Source: Chloroflexota bacterium (lineage in GTDB: Bacteria; Chloroflexota; UBA11872). From it: 64,000 bases of DNA. The position numbers were made by a program, and so were the translations under genes. Below, piece after piece: positions 9,656 through 64,000 of this stretch. The DNA lies in the NCBI GenBank assembly GCA_034428595.1, contig DAOUHO010000110.1:112-64111 (forward strand). Reading direction: 5' to 3'. The stretch's first letter is position 1. Each line of letters opens with the position of its first letter. The notes under the pieces were generated by a model. The model saw only the letters and a list, made by a program, of their open reading frames with translations. It made no database searches and was not told the DNA's origin.

Positions 9656-10957
9656 ATGCCTGAACCGCCGCCGCTGACGCACTCGCGCCTGTGGCGACCT
9701 GGCCAGCCCATCAACCGCCGCGCGCTTCTCGGGGCATCGCTCCTTGGCGCGGCGGCGGCGGCAACGACCCCGCTGCTCGCGCAATCGGTAACCGAGGATG
9801 AGATCTCGGAAACCGAGGAGGAAGTGGAGCGCGTCGATAGTGAGCGGCGCGCGGCCGAGGCGCTCGTGGAGGCGTCGATCGCGCGCGAGAGCACGTTGCA
9901 GCAGCAACTGGCCGTCATCGACCGCGACCGCTATCTGGCCGCCGAGCGGCTGCTTGCGGTCAAGCGAGAGCTCGAGACCGTGGAGCTCGAGGTCTTCGAT
10001 ATCAACCAGTCCATCGGCCAGCTCAACGTCGCGCTAGCCAGCGAGACTTCGGTGCTCGAACGGAAGGCGCGATCGCTGTATAAGGCAGGCCGCACGACGT
10101 TGCTGGAAACGGTCCTCGCGGCCGACTCATTCGCCGGCGCGCTTGACCGCGCGGCCTCGCTCGAGCGGTTGCTGGCGCGCGGCGTCGCCGACATCGGCCA
10201 GCTCCGGTTGCGGCGCAGCGAGATTCAGCTGCGCACGGCCGACCTGACGGCGCGCTTGGACCGGCAACAGGAACTGCAAGCCGAGGCCCAGTCGATCGAG
10301 GCTGAGCTGGCGCGCCGGGCCGAGGAACAGCGCGACCTCATCTTCAGCGTGCAGCAGGAGCAGGCGGAGCGCGTGGAGGACGTAAAGGTCTATGAGCGTG
10401 AGGCGGAAGCCATCGCCTACCGCGTCCGGCTCCTGCGAGACATTCGCGAGCGAGAGCTCATTGAGTTGGAGCGACGACGCCGGGCCGCCGAGGCGCTGGA
10501 GCAGGCGCAGCGGTTGGCCCGAGAGGTCATTAGCCAGCAGGGTCCAGGCGCCGCCGGCCCCTATATCTGGCCGCTGCTGGGTCTCATCACCACCGAGTAC
10601 GGCGGGTGCACCTTTGGGCAGTGTCCCCACCTGGGTATGGACATCGCCGCTTCGTCGGGCACGCCCATCGTGGCGGCCAACGACGGCGTGGTGCTGGCCG
10701 CGGGGTTGGTCGTGCCCGGCGACCGGCGCGCCTCATACGGGATGATCGTGGTCATCGCGCACAGTGAGACCGAAGAAACCCTCTACGCGCACCTCGACGA
10801 CCTCACGTGGCCGCCGCCGGTCGCGCCGGGACAGTTCGTGAGCCGCGGCCAGACCATCGGCTTCGTCGGCCTCACCGGGTGGACCACCGGCCCCCACCTG
10901 CACCTTGAGTATCGCGTCGGCGGCGCCGCTAGTGACCCGCGGCGGGTGCTCGTCTAG
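9656..10957 (+). CDS. M23 family peptidoglycan metalloendopeptidase with coiled-coil N-terminal domain (EnvC-like)
   Basis: 433 aa; twin-arginine-like signal (NRRALLGASLLGAAAAA); long heptad-rich region; C-terminal LytM motifs HLGMDIAA ... GPHLHLE. Confidence 0.85.
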   Translation: MPEPPPLTHSRLWRPGQPINRRALLGASLLGAAAAATTPLLAQSVTEDEISETEEEVERVDSERRAAEALVEASIARESTLQQQLAVIDRDRYLAAERLLAVKRELETVELEVFDINQSIGQLNVALASETSVLERKARSLYKAGRTTLLETVLAADSFAGALDRAASLERLLARGVADIGQLRLRRSEIQLRTADLTARLDRQQELQAEAQSIEAELARRAEEQRDLIFSVQQEQAERVEDVKVYEREAEAIAYRVRLLRDIRERELIELERRRRAAEALEQAQRLAREVISQQGPGAAGPYIWPLLGLITTEYGGCTFGQCPHLGMDIAASSGTPIVAANDGVVLAAGLVVPGDRRASYGMIVVIAHSETEETLYAHLDDLTWPPPVAPGQFVSRGQTIGFVGLTGWTTGPHLHLEYRVGGAASDPRRVLV

Positions 10958-11357: not shown

Positions 11358-12167
11358 CTATACCGCCGCCTTCATCTCCCTGTACTGGCCTTCCATCGTC
11401 CCGTTGACCGCCAGCGTCGCGTCGAGGCCATCCGCCAGCGTCGCCAGCGCGCTGCCGGGTATGGCAGCCAGCACGTAGGAGTCGGGGATTTCGGTAAAGG
11501 TGCGCATGCCGATGCAGCCGAGCGAAATCGACGCCGCGTCGCGCGCCGCCGCCGTCGGCAGCACGCCGCAGGCGGGCCGACCGAACACGCCGTCTTGCGG
11601 ACCGGTCCACAGCGTGCCGCCCAGGCTCTCCTCGAGAAACATCGTCTGCTTGGGCGTCAGCCACAGGATCACGTTGTCGGGTTCGAGCGGAAACGTCGCC
11701 AGGGGGCCGTAGACGGCGCCTTTCGGGCCGGGATCGAAGTGGGGGATGTGCGGGATTTCCTCTTCGCGGATGTAGGCCAGCGAGCACATGTCGCCGACCA
11801 GACCCATCAGCTCTTCCTGCTTGGGCGCCGGCAGCTCGAACCCCATCACCATCGCGCCGATGGGACAGCCCATGTGCGCCGCCTCGTCGGCGAAGAACAC
11901 CTGCTCCTCGGCGCGGCGCCAAAACGTGCAAGCCGATGGCACGGCGTCGGTCCACGCCGCGATCCCTGACGGGGGCGCGTCCACCCGCGCGACCGCCACC
12001 GGCGGATACTCGAGGTCAAGGGCGGACTGAAGTCGGGCGGCCAGATCGGCGTGGGGCGTGGTCGTCATGCTTGCTCCAATGGGGGCGTCAGGCCCGCCGG
12101 CATCAGCAGGTAGGCGCTGCCAGGTTCTTAAGCGGTTCTCATGATGGTGACACAACGTGTTGAACAT
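11358..12167 (-). CDS. DUF169 family protein
   Basis: 269-aa ORF; family-like architecture; an internal Met (MTTTPHADL) about 33 codons in is an alternative start. Confidence 0.55.
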   Translation of the reverse strand: MFNTLCHHHENRLRTWQRLPADAGGPDAPIGASMTTTPHADLAARLQSALDLEYPPVAVARVDAPPSGIAAWTDAVPSACTFWRRAEEQVFFADEAAHMGCPIGAMVMGFELPAPKQEELMGLVGDMCSLAYIREEEIPHIPHFDPGPKGAVYGPLATFPLEPDNVILWLTPKQTMFLEESLGGTLWTGPQDGVFGRPACGVLPTAAARDAASISLGCIGMRTFTEIPDSYVLAAIPGSALATLADGLDATLAVNGTMEGQYREMKAAV

Positions 12168-12218: not shown

Positions 12219-12656
12219 CTAGGATGCCGTGGTATGGCATGGACCGCACAGCCCAAACACTTCCAGGCTGTGGCCGGTCACGGCGAATCCAGTCTTGAGC
12301 TCAACCTCGGTGGTGATTGCGTCGAAGCTGCACCGTTCGATGATGTCGACCGTGCCGCATGTTTGGCACACGACGTGGTGCTGATCGGGAGACCGGCGCG
12401 CCAAATAGCGGTGCTGCTCTGGGGAGGGGTGCACCGTTTCCACCGCATCGATGTCCCGCAGCAGGTCCAGCGTCCGGTACACGGTGCTCCGTGAGGCGTC
12501 GCCATCGGATTGCCGCACGGCCATGACCAACTCTTCGGCCGACATGCCTGCCGGCGCCGCATCGATGGCAGCCAGGATCAAACGCCGTTGGTCGGTGACG
12601 CGGCCGCCGGCGTCTCGCAGGGCGGCGAGGGTGCGAGTGATCCAGGTGGACTTCAT
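12219..12656 (-). CDS. Fur family transcriptional regulator (Fur/Zur/PerR-type)
   Basis: 145 aa; winged-helix N-terminus; Zn-site cysteines (VVCQTCG ... LCGPC). Confidence 0.85.
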   Translation of the reverse strand: MKSTWITRTLAALRDAGGRVTDQRRLILAAIDAAPAGMSAEELVMAVRQSDGDASRSTVYRTLDLLRDIDAVETVHPSPEQHRYLARRSPDQHHVVCQTCGTVDIIERCSFDAITTEVELKTGFAVTGHSLEVFGLCGPCHTTAS

Positions 12657-49166: not shown

Positions 49167-50657
49167 CTAGTTTTCGTCGATCACCTTTTGGACTTCGGCC
49201 TCGGCCCACGCGGCGGCGTCCTCGGGGCTCTCACCGTCGAACACCATGATGAACATGTCCTTCACGATGTTCCGGGCGGTGACGGTCCCGAGAAGCTCCG
49301 AGCCCTTGGACCCGTACTTCGATCCGCCGACCCACGCCATCTGCGAGGCGTCCACGCCCGCGCGGATGATGTGCGCCACCGGTGCGATGCGCGGGTGGCC
49401 CCAATACTCGTCGCTGTTCTGCACGTCCACGTGCGTCGGCGCCCAGCCGATCACCGTGCTCTGGAACCACTCCTGGTAGTTCTCGCGAGCGAAGAGCTCG
49501 GCGAAGAACTCCGCCATGCGGTCGGGGTAGTCCGTCTGCGTGGTGATGTTGAGGATATTCATCCCCGCCAACCCGGCGCCCGTGCCCGCCACGCTCGGCT
49601 GCGCGACGGCGGAAACCTGTTCCAGCATTTCCGGCTTGTCGGCCAGGAAGGTGCCGGAGAACGAGGTCGACGAGACCATGTGCGCCGTGGCGCCGCGAAT
49701 GAACTCCGTCCGACCGTCGCCTTCGTGGCGGGCTGCCGCGCCCGGCGCCGAAACGTCGTCCAGGGCCTTCGCCAGCTTGAGCGCCGCGATGGTGCCCGGG
49801 CTGTTGACGGAGTTGTTGCCGTTCTCGTCGAAGACGTACGCGTCATGCGCCGGCATCAAGCTCCACGCCATCTTGGGATGGGCGTCCAGCAAGTAGGTGA
49901 AGTAGCCGTAGATGTCCGGCGGGTTGTTCAGTGCCTGGGCGTTCGCCAGGATGTTGTCCCACGATGTCGGGTCCGGCAGACCGTGCTGCGCGTAGAGGTC
50001 GCTGCGGTAGTACAGGATGTGGGGCCACAGGAACTGCGGCACGCCGTAGTTCACCCCGTCCACCGCGGTCGCGTTGAGGTCGTTCTCGCCGAAGATGTCG
50101 CGCCCCATCAGGTCCAGCGCGTCCGTCGCCGGCGCGACGATCTCTTGCCCAGACCAGCTCCAGGTCGCATCCGGCTGGCTCCAGACCATGTCCGGCAGCG
50201 TGCCGGCGGCTTTGGCCGCCAGGATCTTCGGCTCCGTCTCGCGGAACGGCACCACTTCGCGGTTCATTCGCACGTCCGCTGAAATGCCGGCGCGGGCGAA
50301 CCAGGCGTCCTGCGCCGCCACGCCCAGCGGCCGCGTCTCAAAGTCCCAGAACGAGATGTCGAGGATTTCGCGCTCGACCATGACTTCCTCGACGACCCGC
50401 TGGGTAATGACCTGCTGGACCGGAACTTCCTTGATGACTTCCTGCGTGACGATCTTCTCGACCGACACTTCCTTGATGACTTCCTTGGTGACCACCGTCT
50501 CGACCGGGACCTCCTTGATGACTTCCTTGGTGACGACTTCCGTTTCGCCGCAGGCGCCCAGGATCATCGCGACGGTCGCGGTTCCACCGGCTGCCGCGGC
50601 CAGGCGGAACAATCGCCGTCGACTCAGCGCCCCGCTTCGACTAAAGGTCTCTTTCAT
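49167..50657 (-). CDS. carbohydrate ABC transporter substrate-binding lipoprotein (SBP family 1) with N-terminal 14-aa tandem-repeat linker
   Basis: 496 aa from ATG 50657; Tat-like RRRLF plus lipobox LGAC; four VVTKEVIKEVPVE-type repeats before the SBP_bac_1 domain. Confidence 0.85.
   Translation of the reverse strand: MKETFSRSGALSRRRLFRLAAAAGGTATVAMILGACGETEVVTKEVIKEVPVETVVTKEVIKEVSVEKIVTQEVIKEVPVQQVITQRVVEEVMVEREILDISFWDFETRPLGVAAQDAWFARAGISADVRMNREVVPFRETEPKILAAKAAGTLPDMVWSQPDATWSWSGQEIVAPATDALDLMGRDIFGENDLNATAVDGVNYGVPQFLWPHILYYRSDLYAQHGLPDPTSWDNILANAQALNNPPDIYGYFTYLLDAHPKMAWSLMPAHDAYVFDENGNNSVNSPGTIAALKLAKALDDVSAPGAAARHEGDGRTEFIRGATAHMVSSTSFSGTFLADKPEMLEQVSAVAQPSVAGTGAGLAGMNILNITTQTDYPDRMAEFFAELFARENYQEWFQSTVIGWAPTHVDVQNSDEYWGHPRIAPVAHIIRAGVDASQMAWVGGSKYGSKGSELLGTVTARNIVKDMFIMVFDGESPEDAAAWAEAEVQKVIDEN
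50364..50546 (-). repeat. coding tandem repeat (4 x ~42 nt) giving (T/K)(V/I)VT(K/Q)EVIKEV(P/S)VE units in the SBP linker
   Basis: nucleotide-level direct repeats cttgatgacttcct(t/g)g(g/c)tgac... visible on the plus strand. Confidence 0.7.
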
Positions 50658-51001
50658 CCTTTGCTCCTCTGCTCTCGCGGGGCGCATGAGGTCGCCGCCG
50701 CACAACTAGTCAACACAAACACAACGTTGGCTGGGAGAATATCGCCTGGGCGCGTTCGGGAGCCGCGGGGCGCATTGAAGAAGGTGCCCTTCCGGCACCG
50801 ACCGGCATTGGCCTGGTTACAGCCACCGCGCAATCGAATTCGCCTGCGCCCGTTTACGGTAATTTGGCGATGGCGCTGTATATCACGAAGCTGGTTGACG
50901 CTACAACCGCGGCGGAATCTGAGTAGCCCCGCATGACGAGTGCGCCGCCCGCGCTCCGCATGCCACACTGCGCCCATAGGACCGTGGACCGAGGTGCGGC
51001 G

Positions 51002-58234: not shown

Positions 58235-58512
58235 ACCGAGAGACGCCCACCGCTGTTGGGGGGGCGCATGCCCGCCTGGCTCGTCAGTCTTCGCCCGCCG
58301 GTGACTGACGGCGCGCTCCGTCAGCCTTGTCGACACGTATATTGCGCGTCCGGCGCAGTGACGGTTGACCAACAGCGAAATAGCCGACGCTCCCTGCAAC
58401 TGCGTCGAACGCGCGTCAGCACCGCTGCGCACGAGCCGTAGGGCTCGGCGCCGCGTCCGCGAAGTGGCGGCGGATTGAAGGGCGAGGCGGACCAACGCGA
58501 GCAGCTTCTCGA

Positions 58513-58544
58513 ACGATTCCATTTATTGCGACTATATGTCAATA
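58513..58544 (+). promoter_or_regulatory. znuA promoter (-35 TTGCGA, 17-nt spacer, -10 TATATT) overlapping palindrome TTATTG-N11-CAATAA; candidate Fur-family (Zur) operator
   Basis: AT-rich island atttattgcgactatatgtcaataaatgtatattgcgcc ~55-85 nt upstream of znuA ATG; TATTGCG direct repeat at 58514-20 and 58541-47. Confidence 0.45.
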
Positions 58545-58597
58545 AATGTATATTGCGCCTAGATCTCAATAAGGAGGTCTCTATCGGAGGTTGGTCA

Positions 58598-59737
58598 ATG
58601 AGATTCGGCATCGCGCTCGTCGCGCTTTTCGGCGTGCTGGTCCTGGCAATGGCCTGTGGGGACAGCGACAGGACTTCGGAGCGCCTCACGGGCACCGCGA
58701 CCCCAACGCTATCGGCCAACGAAGGATCAGAGTCTGGCGACGAAAGTTCGGAGCGCCTCACGGTCATCGCGACCATCTACCCGCTGGGGTACTTCGCCGA
58801 GCGCGTCGGCGGTGACCGGGCCGAAGTCACCGTGCTCGTTGACCCCGGCGTTGAAGCACACGGCTACGAGCTCACATCGTCCGAATTGCTGAAGCTTGGC
58901 GACGCGGACGTGATCGTGATGAATGGGCTCGGTCTCGAGCCATGGATGGATCGGGCGATGGAGGCTGTCGAAGTTGACCTTTCGGCACTGGTCGTGGAAG
59001 CGGCCGACCCGGGGCTGGCCATGGAGGGCGAAGTCCATATGCACGACGACGAAGAGGAGCACCACGACGATGAGGAAGGTGAGCACGCCGACGAAGAGGG
59101 GCACCACGACGACGAGGATGCCGACGAAGAAGGTCACCACGACGACGAGGACGACGGTGACCATGGCGACGAGCACGCCGACGAACACGGCCACGGCGAC
59201 GAGGCGAGCGGACTCGATCCCCACTTCTGGCTCAGCCCGACGACGGCTGCGCGACAGGTCGAGCGCATCCGTGACGCATTCATCACGGTGGATGCGGCCA
59301 ACACCGCCACCTACCGGCAGAACGCGGACGAGCTGATCGCCGATTTGAATGAGCTCGATCAGGGATTCGCCGAGGGCCTCGCCGCTTGCAAGCACGATCA
59401 CTTCGTGACCTCGCACGCGGCCTATGGCTATCTGGCCGCGCAATACGGCATTGAGCAAATCGCGTTGGCCGGATTCTCCCCACAAGTAGAGCCCTCGCCG
59501 CAGCGGCTAGCCAGCGTGGCGGACCGCGTGACCGACCTGGGCTTGGGGCATGTCCTGGTCGAGCCGGTGCTCAGTGACCGCCTGGCGCAGACGATCGCCC
59601 GCGAAACCGACATTGAGCTCCTCATCATCCACGCCATCGAGAGCGTGACGGCGAACGAGCTCGAGGCGCACGGTGATTACTTCGGCCTCATGCGCGACAA
59701 CCTGGCGAATCTCAGGGTCGCGTTGGAATGTGAATAA
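58598..59737 (+). CDS. znuA: zinc ABC transporter substrate-binding lipoprotein (ZnuA/TroA family) with His/Asp/Glu-rich loop
   Basis: 379 aa; GGAGG 7 nt upstream; lipobox LAMAC; 56-aa acidic His-rich loop HMHDDEEEHHDDEEGEH...HGHGDE (nt 59036-59203). Confidence 0.8.
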   Translation: MRFGIALVALFGVLVLAMACGDSDRTSERLTGTATPTLSANEGSESGDESSERLTVIATIYPLGYFAERVGGDRAEVTVLVDPGVEAHGYELTSSELLKLGDADVIVMNGLGLEPWMDRAMEAVEVDLSALVVEAADPGLAMEGEVHMHDDEEEHHDDEEGEHADEEGHHDDEDADEEGHHDDEDDGDHGDEHADEHGHGDEASGLDPHFWLSPTTAARQVERIRDAFITVDAANTATYRQNADELIADLNELDQGFAEGLAACKHDHFVTSHAAYGYLAAQYGIEQIALAGFSPQVEPSPQRLASVADRVTDLGLGHVLVEPVLSDRLAQTIARETDIELLIIHAIESVTANELEAHGDYFGLMRDNLANLRVALECE

Positions 59738-60509
59738 CGTCCGCCCGTCGCCGCCTCCCGTCATCGAATGGGATCGCGTGACCTTCGCGTACGGCGAGGC
59801 GGTGGCGGTGGAGGACGTATCACTCACCATCCATGCCGGCGAGCTGGCGGCGATCTTGGGACCCAACGGCAGCGGCAAGAGCACCCTGATCCGGCTTGCC
59901 CTCGGTCTGCTCCGCCCGCTAGCGGGATCGGTACGGCTCTTCGGGCGCAATGCCCAGGACTTTGCCGATTGGGGCCGCGTCGGCTACATGCCGCAGGTGG
60001 TGGCCGGGGCCTGGCGCGACTTTCCCGTCACCGTCGCCGAAACGGTGGCCCAGGGGGCGTATCGCGGCATCTCCCCCTTCGCGCTGTTTCATCGCTCCGA
60101 GCGCCCCGAGGTCATCGAGGCGCTCGAGGCGGTGGACATGGCTTCCTACAAGGGACGGCGTCTGTCGCAACTCTCCGTCGGCCAACAGCAGCGCGTGCTC
60201 TTGGCCCGGGCGCTCGTGCGTCAGCCCGAGCTGATCGTGCTCGACGAGCCGGCGGCCGGCATTGACGTGTCCGGCGAGGAGCAGCTGTACGCCGTGCTCC
60301 GCGACCTCAATCGCGAGCGCAACATCACCATCGTGCTGGTGTCGCACGACATTGGGGCCATGCTGCGCGAGGCCAGCACCGTCGCCTGCATGAACCGCAC
60401 CCTGGTCCGTCACGGGCCGCCCCACGAGCTCACCAACGGTGAAATGGCCATGCTCTACGGCGCGCCCGTCAACGTGCTGGTCCACGACGCGCTCCACGAA
60501 CACCGCTAG
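59730..60509 (+). CDS. znuC: zinc ABC transporter ATP-binding protein
   Basis: GTG start overlapping znuA stop; Walker A GPNGSGKST, signature LSVGQQQR, Walker B LIVLDEPAAGID. Confidence 0.8.
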   Translation: MNNVRPSPPPVIEWDRVTFAYGEAVAVEDVSLTIHAGELAAILGPNGSGKSTLIRLALGLLRPLAGSVRLFGRNAQDFADWGRVGYMPQVVAGAWRDFPVTVAETVAQGAYRGISPFALFHRSERPEVIEALEAVDMASYKGRRLSQLSVGQQQRVLLARALVRQPELIVLDEPAAGIDVSGEEQLYAVLRDLNRERNITIVLVSHDIGAMLREASTVACMNRTLVRHGPPHELTNGEMAMLYGAPVNVLVHDALHEHR

Positions 60510-60511
60510 TC

Positions 60512-61402
60512 ATGCCCTCGATCTTTCTCTACGAGTTCATGCTGCGCGCCCTCGCCGGCGGCGTGCTCGTGGGCATGCTGGCGCCCACGCTCGGGGTATT
60601 CGTCGTGCTGCGGCGTTTTTCGCTCATTGCCGACACGCTCGCGCACGTGGCGCTGATGGGCGTGGCCGTGGGACTGGCGACCAATACGTTTCCGTCGGTG
60701 GTGGCGCTGGTGGCGGCCTCTCTTGGGGCCATCATTGTCGAGCAGTTGCGTTCGCGCGGTCGGCTGCCGGGCGACATGGCCATGGCCGTGGTGCTGTACG
60801 GGTCCCTCGCGTTTGCCGTCGTCGTTATTGGGATTGCCGGCGGCTTCAATGTCGACCTCTTCTCATTCCTGTTTGGCTCCATTCTCAGCGTGTCCCCGCT
60901 GGACCTGTGGCTCCTGGCCGGGATCACAGTCGCCGTGGTGCTGTTTGTCGGAGTGTTCTTCATCGACCTGGCGCAGATTGCCTTCGATGACGATCTGGCG
61001 AAGGTCAACGGGGTGCGGACCGGCGAGCTCAACCTGGCGCTGGCGGTATTGACGGGCGCCACCATCACCTTGTCCATGCGGGTCGTCGGCGTCCTGCTGG
61101 TGGGCGCCATGCTCGTGGTGCCGGTGATGGTTGGGCTGCGACTGGCGCGCGGTCTGCGGACCGCCATGCTCGCGGCCATCGTCGCGGGTGTGATCAGCGC
61201 CATCGTGGGGTTGACCATCGCGTTCTACGTCGACGCCTCGGCCGGCGGCGCGACCGTGCTCACGGCCCTGGGTCTGCTGGCGCTGGCCCATCTTTGGGTG
61301 GCCCTGCGGCGCTGGCGCCGCGGCGGGGGCGCCGGGCTTCCCGTTTCAGCGAGCCAAAACGGCCCGCCGGGTCGCCAGCACCAGCATCACCATCGTCATT
61401 GA
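60512..61402 (+). CDS. znuB: zinc ABC transporter permease (ABC-3 family) with His-rich C-terminal tail
   Basis: 296 aa, ~8 TM; tail ...SQNGPPGRQHQHHHRH. Confidence 0.8.
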   Translation: MPSIFLYEFMLRALAGGVLVGMLAPTLGVFVVLRRFSLIADTLAHVALMGVAVGLATNTFPSVVALVAASLGAIIVEQLRSRGRLPGDMAMAVVLYGSLAFAVVVIGIAGGFNVDLFSFLFGSILSVSPLDLWLLAGITVAVVLFVGVFFIDLAQIAFDDDLAKVNGVRTGELNLALAVLTGATITLSMRVVGVLLVGAMLVVPVMVGLRLARGLRTAMLAAIVAGVISAIVGLTIAFYVDASAGGATVLTALGLLALAHLWVALRRWRRGGGAGLPVSASQNGPPGRQHQHHHRH

Positions 61403-61844
61403 GCGCAGCCGGCGCGCGCTGATCGCCCCGGACGCGCGAAATCACGGTCGTGGCCGTACGCGCGTCAACGCGTCGGTCCGTCGTCGCGTGACATTGGACT
61501 GAGCCCCTTCAATCCCACGGCTCGGCTTAGCGCGCCAGCCGTAGCTGGGGACGCCCGACCGGGAATGGCCTCAGCCGCCCCCGCGAGTCGTTGAGCGGTG
61601 AATGATGACTTCGAAGTTGCTGCCGCGTTTCGTCATCGAATCGGATCACTTGTCGCTCGGCATCCACGCGAGGGCTGCGACCGCTGGGGAAGAGCGGCTT
61701 CGTTTATATGTGCCCGGCGCCATCAGGATCAGTCCGGATTTTCCGCGAGTCCCAGGATATGGCGGCGCCAATGAGACACACTCGCGATTGACGCTCTATA
61801 GTGACACTGCGTGTCGAAATACTTGTGCCGCCGGAGCCTAGTCA

Positions 61845-62927
61845 ATGAGATTCCGCATCGTGATCGTCGCAATTCTTGGAGCGCTGTTACTCACCGCCGC
61901 CTGCGGCGAAAGCGACACCACCTCCGACCGTCTCCAAGTCGTTGCCACGGTCTATCCGCTGGGTTATTTCGCCGAGCGTATCGGCGGAGACCGGGCCGAG
62001 GTCAACGTGCTGGTCGGGCCGGGGCTCGAGGCGCATGGATTCGAGCCCACGTCATCCGATCTGCTGGCTCTCGGCGACGCGGACGTGATCGTCATGAACG
62101 GGATCGGGCTTGAGCCCTGGATGGATGGGGCGATCGACGCCATTGGCGACGACCTGACCGCGGTTGTCGTGGAGGCGTCGGACCCGGCCCAGGCCATGGA
62201 AGGCGAAGTCCACGCCCACGGCGAGGAAGAGGGCGACCACGGCGATGAGGAAGCCGATGAGGAAGGCGACCACGGCGACGAGGAAGCCGATGAGGAAGGC
62301 GACCACGGCGACGAGGACGCCGACGCGGACGCTGACCACGACGAAGCAGAAGGCGAACACGGCGACGAAGAAGAGGGCGACCACGGGGATGAGGAAAGCG
62401 AACTCGACCCCCACATGTGGCTGAGCCCCACGCTGGCCGCCCATCAGGTCGAGCGCATCCGCGACGCCTTTATCGCGGCGGACGCGGACAACGCCGACGG
62501 CTACCGGCAGCGCGCGGACGAGGTGATCGCCGAGCTAGACGCGCTGGACCACGAGTTTGAGGAGAGCCTCGGCGCCTGCAAGCACGATCACTTCGTGACG
62601 TCGCACGCGGCCTACGGATATCTGGCCGCGCAGTTTGGCCTGGAGCAGATCGCGGTTGCCGGGCTGTCCGCCGACGTGGCGCCGTCGCCGCAGCGGTTGG
62701 CCAACGTGACCGACCGCGTGACCGAGTTGGGCCTGGGGCATGTCATGGTCGAGCCGGTGCTGAGCGACCGCCTGGCACAGACGATTGCCCGCGAAACCGG
62801 CATCGAGCTTCTCTCCATCCACGCTATCGGCAGCGTGACGGAGAACGAGCTCGAGGCGCACGGCGACTACTTCGGCCTCATGCGCGACAATCTCGCCAAT
62901 CTCAAGGTCGCGTTGGAATGTGAATGA
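61845..62927 (+). CDS. znuA: zinc ABC transporter substrate-binding lipoprotein (second copy), His/Asp/Glu-rich loop with internal 33-nt repeat
   Basis: 360 aa; lipobox LTAAC; loop HAHGEEEGDHGDEEADEEGDHGDEEADEEGDHGDEDADADADHDEAEGEHGDEEEGDHGDEE; ~80% identical to first ZnuA outside the loop. Confidence 0.8.
   Translation: MRFRIVIVAILGALLLTAACGESDTTSDRLQVVATVYPLGYFAERIGGDRAEVNVLVGPGLEAHGFEPTSSDLLALGDADVIVMNGIGLEPWMDGAIDAIGDDLTAVVVEASDPAQAMEGEVHAHGEEEGDHGDEEADEEGDHGDEEADEEGDHGDEDADADADHDEAEGEHGDEEEGDHGDEESELDPHMWLSPTLAAHQVERIRDAFIAADADNADGYRQRADEVIAELDALDHEFEESLGACKHDHFVTSHAAYGYLAAQFGLEQIAVAGLSADVAPSPQRLANVTDRVTELGLGHVMVEPVLSDRLAQTIARETGIELLSIHAIGSVTENELEAHGDYFGLMRDNLANLKVALECE
62247..62312 (+). 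repeat. coding direct repeat 2 x 33 nt (gaggaagccgatgaggaaggcgaccacggcgac) within znuA-2 metal-binding loop
   Basis: perfect tandem copies read directly. Confidence 0.8.
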
Positions 62928-63700
62928 CGTCCGCCCCGCCGCCGCCTCCCGTCATCGAATGGGATGAAGTGACCTTCGCGTACGGCGAGGCGGTGGCGGT
63001 GGAGGACGTGTCGCTCACCATCCACGCCGGCGAATTGGCGGCGATCTTGGGGCCCAACGGCAGCGGCAAGAGCACGCTGATTCGTCTGGCCCTCGGTCTG
63101 CTGCACCCGACCTCCGGCACCGTGCGACTGTTCGGGCGCGATGCCGAGGACTTCGCCGATTGGGACCGCGTCGGCTACATGCCGCAGGTGGTGGCCGGGG
63201 CCTGGCGCGACTTTCCGGTCACCGTCGCTGAGACGGTGGCCCACGGGGCCTACCGCGGCATTGCCCCGTTTGCGCTGTTTCACCGCTCCAAGCGGCCCGA
63301 GGTCGTGGCGGCGCTTGAAGCGGTTGGCATGGCCGGCTACATGGGCCGTCGCCTGTCGGAGCTTTCCGTCGGTCAGCAGCAACGGGTGCTGCTGGCCCGG
63401 GCGCTTGTGCGTCGCCCCGAGTTGATCGTGTTGGACGAACCCGCGGCCGGTGTTGACGTCTCGGGCGAGGAGCAACTGTACGCCGTGCTCCGTGACCTCA
63501 ACCGGCAGCGCAACATCACCATCGTGCTCGTGTCGCACGATATTGGGGCCATGCTGCGCGAGGCCAGCACGCTGGCTTGCATGAACCGCACGCTGGTTCG
63601 GCACGGCCCGCCCCATGAGCTCACCAGCGAAGAAATCGCCATGCTCTATGGCGTGCCGGTCGACGTGCTGGTGCACGACGCGCTCCACGAACACCGCTAG
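62924..63700 (+). CDS. znuC: zinc ABC transporter ATP-binding protein (second copy)
   Basis: 258 aa; ATGA overlap with znuA-2; ~90% aa identity with first ZnuC. Confidence 0.85.
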   Translation: MTSAPPPPPVIEWDEVTFAYGEAVAVEDVSLTIHAGELAAILGPNGSGKSTLIRLALGLLHPTSGTVRLFGRDAEDFADWDRVGYMPQVVAGAWRDFPVTVAETVAHGAYRGIAPFALFHRSKRPEVVAALEAVGMAGYMGRRLSELSVGQQQRVLLARALVRRPELIVLDEPAAGVDVSGEEQLYAVLRDLNRQRNITIVLVSHDIGAMLREASTLACMNRTLVRHGPPHELTSEEIAMLYGVPVDVLVHDALHEHR

Positions 63701-63702
63701 CC

Positions 63703-64000
63703 GTGCCCGCCATCCTGCTCTACGAGTTCATGGTGCGCGCCCTTGTCGGCGGCGTGCTGGTAGGGATCCTGGCGCCCACGCTTGGCGTCTTCATCGTGCT
63801 GCGGCGCTTTTCGCTGATCGCCGAGACGCTGGCGCACGTGGCGCTCATGGGCGTGGCCGTGGGATTGGCCACGAACACATTCCCGTCGGTGGTGGCTCTC
63901 GTGGCGGCGTCCCTTGGGGCGATCCTCGTCGAGCAGCTCCGCTCCCGCGGTCGGCTGCCCGGCGACGTGGCCATGGCCGTGGTGCTGTACGGCGCGCTCG
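63703..64000 (+). CDS. znuB: zinc ABC transporter permease (second copy), 5' part only (runs off window)
   Basis: GTG 63703 then VPAILLYEFMVRALVGGVLVGILAPTLGVFIVLRRFSLIAETLAHVALMG..., near-identical to first ZnuB N-terminus. Confidence 0.8.
   Translation, partial: MPAILLYEFMVRALVGGVLVGILAPTLGVFIVLRRFSLIAETLAHVALMGVAVGLATNTFPSVVALVAASLGAILVEQLRSRGRLPGDVAMAVVLYGAL

Follow-up and report, generated by a model that had tools for sequence, protein, structure and literature searches.

YcdH (ZnuA) of Bacillus subtilis, which goes with YceA and YcdI, is a Zur-regulated, zinc-binding lipoprotein of the Gram-positive type with an acidic His-rich loop. AdcA of Streptococcus pneumoniae binds zinc through His63, His140, His204 and Glu279, and its His-rich loop helps uptake when zinc is restricted (PMC7858048). 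Two such systems can occur in one organism, as in Paracoccus denitrificans, where ZnuABC and AztABCD are both Zur-controlled zinc importers of the ATP-binding cassette (ABC) type (PMC6689063). Here we describe a stretch of 64,000 nucleotides (nt) from a Chloroflexota bacterium (contig DAOUHO010000110.1), referred to in its whole length as the window, at the end of which two znuA-znuC-znuB sets follow one another. Their binding proteins share the lipoprotein type and the acidic His-rich loop with YcdH, whose system, unlike the window locus, consists of a single operon and whose loop is short. We did not find tandem znu operons, or the present locus, described in the literature.

Our reading, to which we would assign a probability of about 75%, is that the two sets encode paralogous, separately transcribed zinc ABC importers, which arose by an old tandem operon duplication in a clade of sponge-associated Chloroflexota and have both been kept.

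Two tandem operons and their history

The first-pass annotation had reported two same-strand znuA-znuC-znuB sets, and both are present, at 58598–61402 and from 61845 to the window end. All coordinates below are those of the window, and sites and genes lie on the forward strand unless stated otherwise.

58598–59737, forward: znuA1, lipoprotein-type zinc-binding protein of 379 amino acids (Pfam ZnuA, PF01297, E = 1.2e-77)
59730–60509, forward: znuC1, ABC ATPase with a GTG start, overlapping the end of znuA1 by 8 nt
60512–61402, forward: znuB1, ABC-3 permease of 296 amino acids with a C-terminal His-rich tail, QHQHHHRH
61403–61844, no strand: inter-operon spacer, 442 nt
61845–62927, forward: znuA2, lipoprotein-type zinc-binding protein of 360 amino acids (Pfam ZnuA, E = 1e-76)
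62924–63700, forward: znuC2, ABC ATPase whose ATG overlaps the znuA2 stop codon (ATGA)
63703–64000, forward: znuB2, ABC-3 permease, first 99 codons within the window and the rest beyond its end

Both ZnuA proteins match 261 of the 263 positions of the PF01297 profile, and in each set the Pfam domains ABC_tran (PF00005) and ABC-3 (PF00950) adjoin znuA, znuB2 being partly visible. By BLASTN, 58763–60809 and 61938–64000 are 82.0% identical over 2072 nt (E = 0), far beyond chance, and no third A-C-B unit was detected elsewhere in the 64-kb window. ZnuA1 and ZnuA2 share 74.9% identity over 350 aligned residues of the scaffold; the two ZnuC proteins are 88.0% identical and the two ZnuB proteins 88.9% over 99 residues, in agreement with the roughly 90% first estimated for ZnuC and ZnuB. 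Of the proposed duplication of the whole operon, the A-C-B unit is truly duplicated, but the completeness of znuB2 is not visible within the window; in the syntenic relatives L011, L055 and L056 (related loci are cited by L numbers), znuB2 is complete and encodes 285–294 amino acids.

Some details of the layout had to be adjusted. The spacer between the sets exists, but is 442 nt rather than 440 bp long; relatives keep only its last 95–200 nt, and a weak hairpin followed by a T-tract lies at 61681–61697. An open reading frame (ORF) of 79 amino acids in the spacer (61602–61841) was rejected as a gene, since it is not conserved in relatives. As had been noticed, znuC1 starts at a GTG upstream of an ATA (59734–59736) that replaces the ATG of copy 2; the GTG, at 59730, lies 4 nt and not 6 nt away, and a 1-nt deletion downstream of the ATA brings the frame back.

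The nearest genomes are Chloroflexota metagenome-assembled genomes (MAGs), and many of the related contigs and MAGs we take, from their names and general knowledge, to be derived from marine sponges; the bacterium of the window is taken to be a symbiont of Petrosia ficiformis. The same six-gene order follows a GH127 gene in L011 together with L048 (MAG COS3_bin_17), in L055 (a 63-kb ENA contig) and in L056 (an 80-kb ENA contig), so that the two copies are co-linear in relatives, a lack of which had been named as grounds for abandoning the duplication. This recurrence also bears on whether the arrangement could be an assembly artefact, a tandem join of two strain variants or of a repeat that had been collapsed or expanded. 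Such an artefact would fit the fact that the three contigs of this organism, which are 100% identical where they overlap and not independent, all end inside znuB2 within about 30 nt of each other, and that an exact-match search of the metagenome collection for the continuation of znuB2 gave only an already known contig and none running past the break. ZnuA2 is encoded by the JGI contig PetF_10004855 (sample 3300002734) and by an NCBI metagenome contig, 100% identical to the window; L001 and L002, being 100% identical to the window, were not counted as independent support. However, 18% of the DNA differs between the copies, with at most 51 nt in an exact shared run, a unique 442-nt spacer links them, and other assemblies of other lineages, one of them with a contig name in what looks like the format of a long-read assembler, show the six-gene order with a complete znuB2. 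An artefact is therefore very unlikely.

The duplication had been called recent, with fast diversification of the loops afterwards, and this was not borne out. The synonymous divergence (dS) between copies is 0.48 for znuC, 0.51 for znuB and 0.70 for the znuA scaffold, exceeding that between the window and its L011 orthologues (0.26–0.42), i.e., the copies differ more from each other than orthologues do across species. Among diagnostic sites compared between the window and L011, 61 favor pairing each copy with its namesake (1 with 1, 2 with 2) as orthologues, 3 favor concerted evolution, and 6 are crossed. In neighbour-joining trees with bootstrap, copy 2 of the window and copy 2 of L011 form a clade with 94–100% support, and a copy-1-type clade (L011 copy 1, L003, L015 and L016) is supported at 100%, while the node attaching window copy 1 to the latter reaches 73% or less. 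In these trees the duplication comes first, and at least seven species-level lineages radiated after it. A recent origin would account for the fresh-looking loop repeats, for example in copy 2, and for the quick shifts of loop length among orthologues; yet the divergence of the scaffold, ZnuC and ZnuB predates the species split, several lineages hold orthologues of each copy, and an N-terminal tether and a glutamate at the fourth ligand position of ZnuA1 (see below) are common to all A1 orthologues. We thus regard a recent origin as very improbable, and judged by these comparisons the duplication is old. The ratio of nonsynonymous to synonymous divergence (dN/dS) is 0.12–0.19 between copies and 0.05–0.24 between orthologues, and both copies are therefore under purifying selection.

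Other arrangements occupy the same chromosomal site in relatives. An A1-A2-C1-B1 order is found in L003, L004, L015, L016, L057 and L058, and A1-C-B in L017; L005, L006 and L007 have a single A2-like A-C-B unit followed by a CDF gene. We could find neither one deletion nor one unequal crossover that would turn the six-gene form into the four-gene form; their relation calls for two or more events, or for recombination between different lineages.

In the six-gene loci with a visible downstream flank, znuB2 is followed by Cu/Zn superoxide dismutase and CDF cation-efflux genes on the opposite strand (L011 5819–7660, L055 13102–14946, L056 7463–9165); the window ends upstream of this region. The four-gene loci are without superoxide dismutase and CDF genes, and the single-operon loci have the CDF gene only. 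From its gene content, the group of two importers, superoxide dismutase and CDF looks like a small zinc-homeostasis island.

Binding proteins, ligands and loops

Among solved structures, the closest are those of S. pneumoniae AdcA (7jj8, E = 4.5e-49) and B. subtilis YcdH (2o1e, E = 1.4e-47). Aligning ZnuA1 and ZnuA2 to AdcA 7jj8 with HMMER gave the following assignment:

AdcA His63: ZnuA1 H88, ZnuA2 H64, predicted ligand
AdcA His140: ZnuA1 H209, ZnuA2 H190, predicted ligand
AdcA His204: ZnuA1 H273, ZnuA2 H254, predicted ligand
AdcA Glu279: ZnuA1 E348, ZnuA2 G329, fourth-ligand position

Hence the three-histidine ligand set of the zinc-specific cluster A-I subgroup has an aligned histidine at each position in both proteins, and the copies part at the fourth. 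Both carry a His/acidic loop that separates the first ligand-bearing segment from the second, and in both Cys20 belongs to a lipobox-like A-[MA]-A-C motif that closes the signal peptide, the pattern used here being the generally known one. Regions in which they differ are these:

59036–59212, forward: ZnuA1 His/Asp/Glu loop, 59 amino acids with 13 His, three HH pairs and repeat arrays
62211–62402, forward: ZnuA2 His/Asp/Glu loop, 64 amino acids with 8 His and zero HH pairs
58676–58747, forward: ZnuA1 N-terminal tether, 24 codons, in the A1 lineage only, with a direct repeat SERLTGTA / SERLTVIA

The loops have indeed diverged between copies as first noted, HH-rich in copy 1 and single-His in copy 2, and the exact 2 x 33-nt repeat in the copy 2 loop was recovered at 62247–62312 (TRF, period 33). 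An N-terminal duplication of 69 nt reported for copy 1 turned out to be a direct repeat of period 72 nt, matching at 30 of 36 positions, and the 24-codon insertion is common to all A1 orthologues and so not private to the window. Loop length is 31–110 amino acids among A1 orthologues and 31–126 among 120 homologues, in which the differences are mainly of repeat copy number; in other assemblies, contig breaks and runs of N coincide with the ZnuA loops.

What all A1 orthologues have in common is a tether of 24 residues behind the lipobox, an HMH motif with (E/D)EEGHH repeats after it, a DPHFW motif and a glutamate at the fourth-ligand position. The A2 orthologues and the single-copy outgroups have DPHMW, the tether is mostly absent from them, and the fourth position is mostly glycine. 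Because they mostly lack the A1 hallmarks, ZnuA1 is, by this comparison, the derived paralogue, with ZnuA2 keeping the outgroup-like state.

On the basis of sequence, both systems are filed as cluster A-I (ZnuABC/AdcABC/AztABC) importers of the zinc subgroup, with no named equivalog. The top-scoring NCBIfam models are AztC, AztA and AztB, all below cut-off; the binding proteins score 171–173 bits against AztC (cut-off 350), 117–125 against ZnuA (cut-off 268) and 154–157 against AdcA (cut-off 700). Being below every curated cut-off, the names AztC, AdcA and ZnuA were rejected as equivalogs. No ZinT-like C-terminal domain was found in ZnuA1 or ZnuA2, in which Pfam detected only the ZnuA domain and which end with the binding-protein fold, and no aztD was found in the window by tblastn with an AztD-like domain.

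One of the two systems could conceivably import manganese, iron or another divalent metal, for there are sub-threshold NCBIfam matches to Mn-type proteins (e.g., MntC of Deinococcus) and the coordination spheres of ZnuA1 and ZnuA2 are not alike. Cluster A-I proteins for Mn or Fe have a His2-Glu-Asp (or His3-Asp) site and no His-rich loop. Assignment to this type (PsaA, MntC, TroA) was rejected, as both copies have three histidines with Glu or Gly and long loops. The three-His pattern together with a long His/acidic loop, seen in both proteins, is typical of zinc-specific members, the nearest solved relatives are zinc proteins, and a zur-type box lies in both promoters; we consider that the two systems are hardly likely to serve different metals.

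Repeats and histidine tracts also occur in other proteins of the clade. A 158-nt stretch at 50382–50539 (minus strand, within the ORF 49167–50705) has copies of about 77% identity in related loci, at 10282–10439 and 12666–12823 of L011 and in three places in L015, and the window copy codes for a repetitive (V/I)TKEVIKEVPVE tether directly after a lipobox-like cysteine. This suggests that repetitive tethers, such as the 24-residue tether of ZnuA1, may be a common trait of surface-anchored proteins in the clade. In ZnuB, the window clade has a C-terminal extension of about 20 residues ending in a poly-His tail (e.g., NGPPGHRHHHHH; QHQHHHRH in the window, 61340–61399), which is also present in L003–L007, L011 and L015–L017 and absent from the 274-amino-acid outgroup ZnuB, and which could be a built-in zinc-binding tail.

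Much larger ZnuA-family binding proteins, of 750–840 amino acids, are encoded in related Dehalococcoidia/Chloroflexota loci (L037 8171–10540, L019 7221–9560, L028 8357–10606 and L036 5979–8363; further L031, L032, L038, L039, L041, L046 and L047). A domain of about 390 amino acids sits inside their His-rich loop, with (EDEHGH)n repeats on both sides, and resembles the zinc chaperone AztD (NCBIfam AztD, E = 3e-38 over positions 3–354 of the 356 in the profile, below the curated threshold; PDB 6cmk, E = 5e-18). In the AztABCD system, AztC was reported to need its loop in order to receive zinc from AztD (PMC6689063). At least 120 protein clusters of 696–1376 amino acids, mainly from Chloroflexota, are related to the giant protein and are annotated at source just as zinc ABC binding proteins; the AztD-like insert itself was checked in the eleven loci named here only. 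Most of the giant-ZnuA loci have a zur-like gene upstream and no adjoining znuC or znuB. We found no description of a ZnuA-AztD fusion in the literature on AztD.

Promoter-like sites and candidate Zur boxes

The AT-rich upstream regions noted at first are confirmed, the 120 nt before znuA1 having 47% G+C and those before znuA2 56%, compared with 67% for the window. Each copy was also thought to have its own promoter, and one sigma-70-like site was found before each (2 found vs. 0.4 expected). The candidate elements are the following:

58526–58554, forward: promoter-like site of operon 1, TTGCGA, 17-nt spacer, TATATT, a block conserved in all A1 orthologues
61773–61802, forward: promoter-like site of operon 2, GAGACA, 18-nt spacer, TATAGT
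58526–58542, no strand: candidate Zur box 1a, TTGCGACTATATGTCAA, 72 nt before the znuA1 start codon, 13.4 bits, top match in the window
58553–58569, no strand: weaker candidate box 1b, TTGCGCCTAGATCTCAA, 45 nt before the znuA1 start codon, score 7.2
61801–61817, no strand: candidate Zur box 2, GTGACACTGCGTGTCGA, 44 nt before the znuA2 start codon, 12.8 bits, third-best match in the window

These candidate boxes derive from a comparison with more distant Chloroflexota, in which a Fur-family (zur-like) gene lies directly upstream of znuA (Pfam FUR, E = 1e-26) and itself has before it one or two boxes of the form TTGATAC-N3-GTATCAA or TTGATAC-N3-GTATTGA. A matrix was built solely from the boxes upstream of these outgroup zur-like genes, and the 64-kb window was scanned with it. 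The top three matches lie at 58526 (13.4 bits), 12147 (13.3 bits) and 61801 (12.8 bits), and three matches of at least 12.8 bits compare with 0.28 expected from block shuffles. The boxes are 17-bp palindromes whose positions are fixed in every orthologue, at -72 and -45 before A1 and at -44 before A2, and the two-box layout of operon 1 resembles that of outgroup zur promoters. Box 1a, at 58526, overlaps promoter 1 in the -35 hexamer and the spacer, and box 2, at 61801, begins where the -10 hexamer of promoter 2 ends. We infer that one Zur-type protein represses both operons, a common regulator being likelier than a different one for each because both promoters carry the same type of box. At Rfam gathering thresholds the whole window gave no match, and thus no riboswitch or known RNA at either leader.

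The second-best match to the matrix lies apart from the operons, in the following context:

12147–12163, no strand: second-best Zur-matrix match, GTGACACAACGTGTTGA, 13.3 bits, between the Fur-family gene and the DUF169 gene
12219–12656, minus strand: Fur-family gene (Pfam FUR, E = 4e-23)
11358–12068, minus strand: DUF169 gene, downstream of the Fur-family gene and the GTGACACAACGTGTTGA box

From this arrangement, the Fur-family gene may be the Zur of the organism, or the DUF169 gene may be part of the zinc regulon. TTGATAC-N3-GTATCAA is a candidate Zur operator for Chloroflexota, and searches with it could predict the zinc regulons of these genomes.

Two importers weighed against known systems

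Taken together, the following model is proposed. When zinc is sufficient, a Fur-family repressor of the Zur type, as suggested by comparative footprinting, would sit on the 17-bp palindromes overlapping the promoters, operon 1 being repressed via two boxes and operon 2 via one. When zinc is scarce, both operons would be expressed. The binding proteins would be exported and probably lipid-anchored at Cys20, the motif of which is seen in both. The long loop, acidic and rich in His, would collect Zn2+ and hand it over to the three-histidine site, in analogy to ZnuA and AdcA; the binding protein would then dock on its own ABC-3 permease and the ATPase would power import. Docking on the permease and ATPase-driven import are general features of the family.

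The differences between ZnuA1 and ZnuA2 are conserved within each paralogue lineage, and different zinc-capture properties, not mere redundancy, are therefore suggested. Functional specialisation of the two systems is plausible from these sequence comparisons, and the split between Glu and Gly at the fourth ligand, along with two candidate boxes vs. one, provides leads that would fit the two affinity regimes or different regulation that had been proposed for the copies. A division of labor between two zinc-capture devices, conserved across species, in which the two proteins differ in affinity, in kinetics or in the zinc pools of the sponge host that they can reach, is a tentative suggestion that we hold to be possible, although with odds clearly against it. 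If it were true, ZnuA1 would be the protein with a long tether, an expandable HH-rich loop, a His3-Glu site and two boxes, and ZnuA2 the one without a tether, with a single-His loop, a His3-only site and one box; slippage of the repeats would tune loop length as a fast-evolving capacity dial; and the relatives with two A genes and one C-B pair would show the binding proteins, and not the permeases, to be the selected unit.

Alternatively, the two systems might do the same job as plain redundancy or dosage, the differences between ZnuA1 and ZnuA2 being neutral drift. The same type of box at both promoters, the family-wide variation of the fourth-ligand position and the loss in relatives, unreplaced, of one C-B pair or one entire copy are all compatible with this. 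However, the tether, DPHFW, the glutamate and the HH-rich loop are kept in all A1 orthologues while ZnuA2 is outgroup-like, and both A genes stay where one C-B pair is gone, which points to selection for two different binding proteins. We consider simple redundancy unlikely.

Several observations weigh against our reading of two retained, specialised importers. Besides the window itself, the two identical contigs of the organism stop inside znuB2, as mentioned above. Close relatives have two binding proteins with a single C-B pair, and because they manage with it, the second permease and ATPase would be dispensable. Among the 120 homologues of the family, the residue at the fourth-ligand position varies (E in 72, G in 35, A in 6, D in 4), with Glu or Ala even in some A2 orthologues, and this variation may be tolerated rather than adaptive. 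No zur gene lies beside the locus, the window clade being without an adjacent regulator, and the sole Fur-family gene in the window, at 12219–12656 on the minus strand, shares 29% identity with the zur-like proteins of the outgroups. Further, since the NCBIfam cut-offs are missed, metal specificity rests on the ligand pattern and loop chemistry.

It is well known that a bacterium may have several zinc importers, and the window pair are fairly ordinary paralogous metal transporters that leave the general picture unchanged. Their use lies rather in the comparison that they allow. The six-, four- and three-gene loci of these uncultured sponge symbionts form a natural series for asking which part of a zinc ABC importer selection acts on, and the natural Glu/Gly swap at the fourth ligand and the loops of 31–110 residues, altered by repeat expansion, are useful material.

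The ZnuA proteins of Synechocystis and Escherichia coli (1pq4, 2osv) belong to the same fold family and have a flexible His-rich loop, but are periplasmic proteins of diderm bacteria, unlike those of the window. In Synechocystis ZnuA, zinc is bound by three histidines with no protein carboxylate at the fourth position, as would be the case in ZnuA2. AdcA of S. pneumoniae, in turn, is a lipoprotein with three histidines and Glu279, as in ZnuA1; it differs in having a ZinT-like C-terminal domain and a loop of about 17 amino acids vs. 59–64 in the window proteins, and is controlled by AdcR, not by a Fur-family protein. The two importers of Paracoccus, ZnuABC and AztABCD, are distant paralogues at separate loci, whereas the window pair lies in tandem. 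Finally, the pneumococcus has two binding-protein paralogues, AdcA and AdcAII, with AdcCB, which is the likeness of the relatives with A1-A2-C-B and a single C-B pair; in the window, unlike in the pneumococcus, the whole operon is tandem-duplicated.

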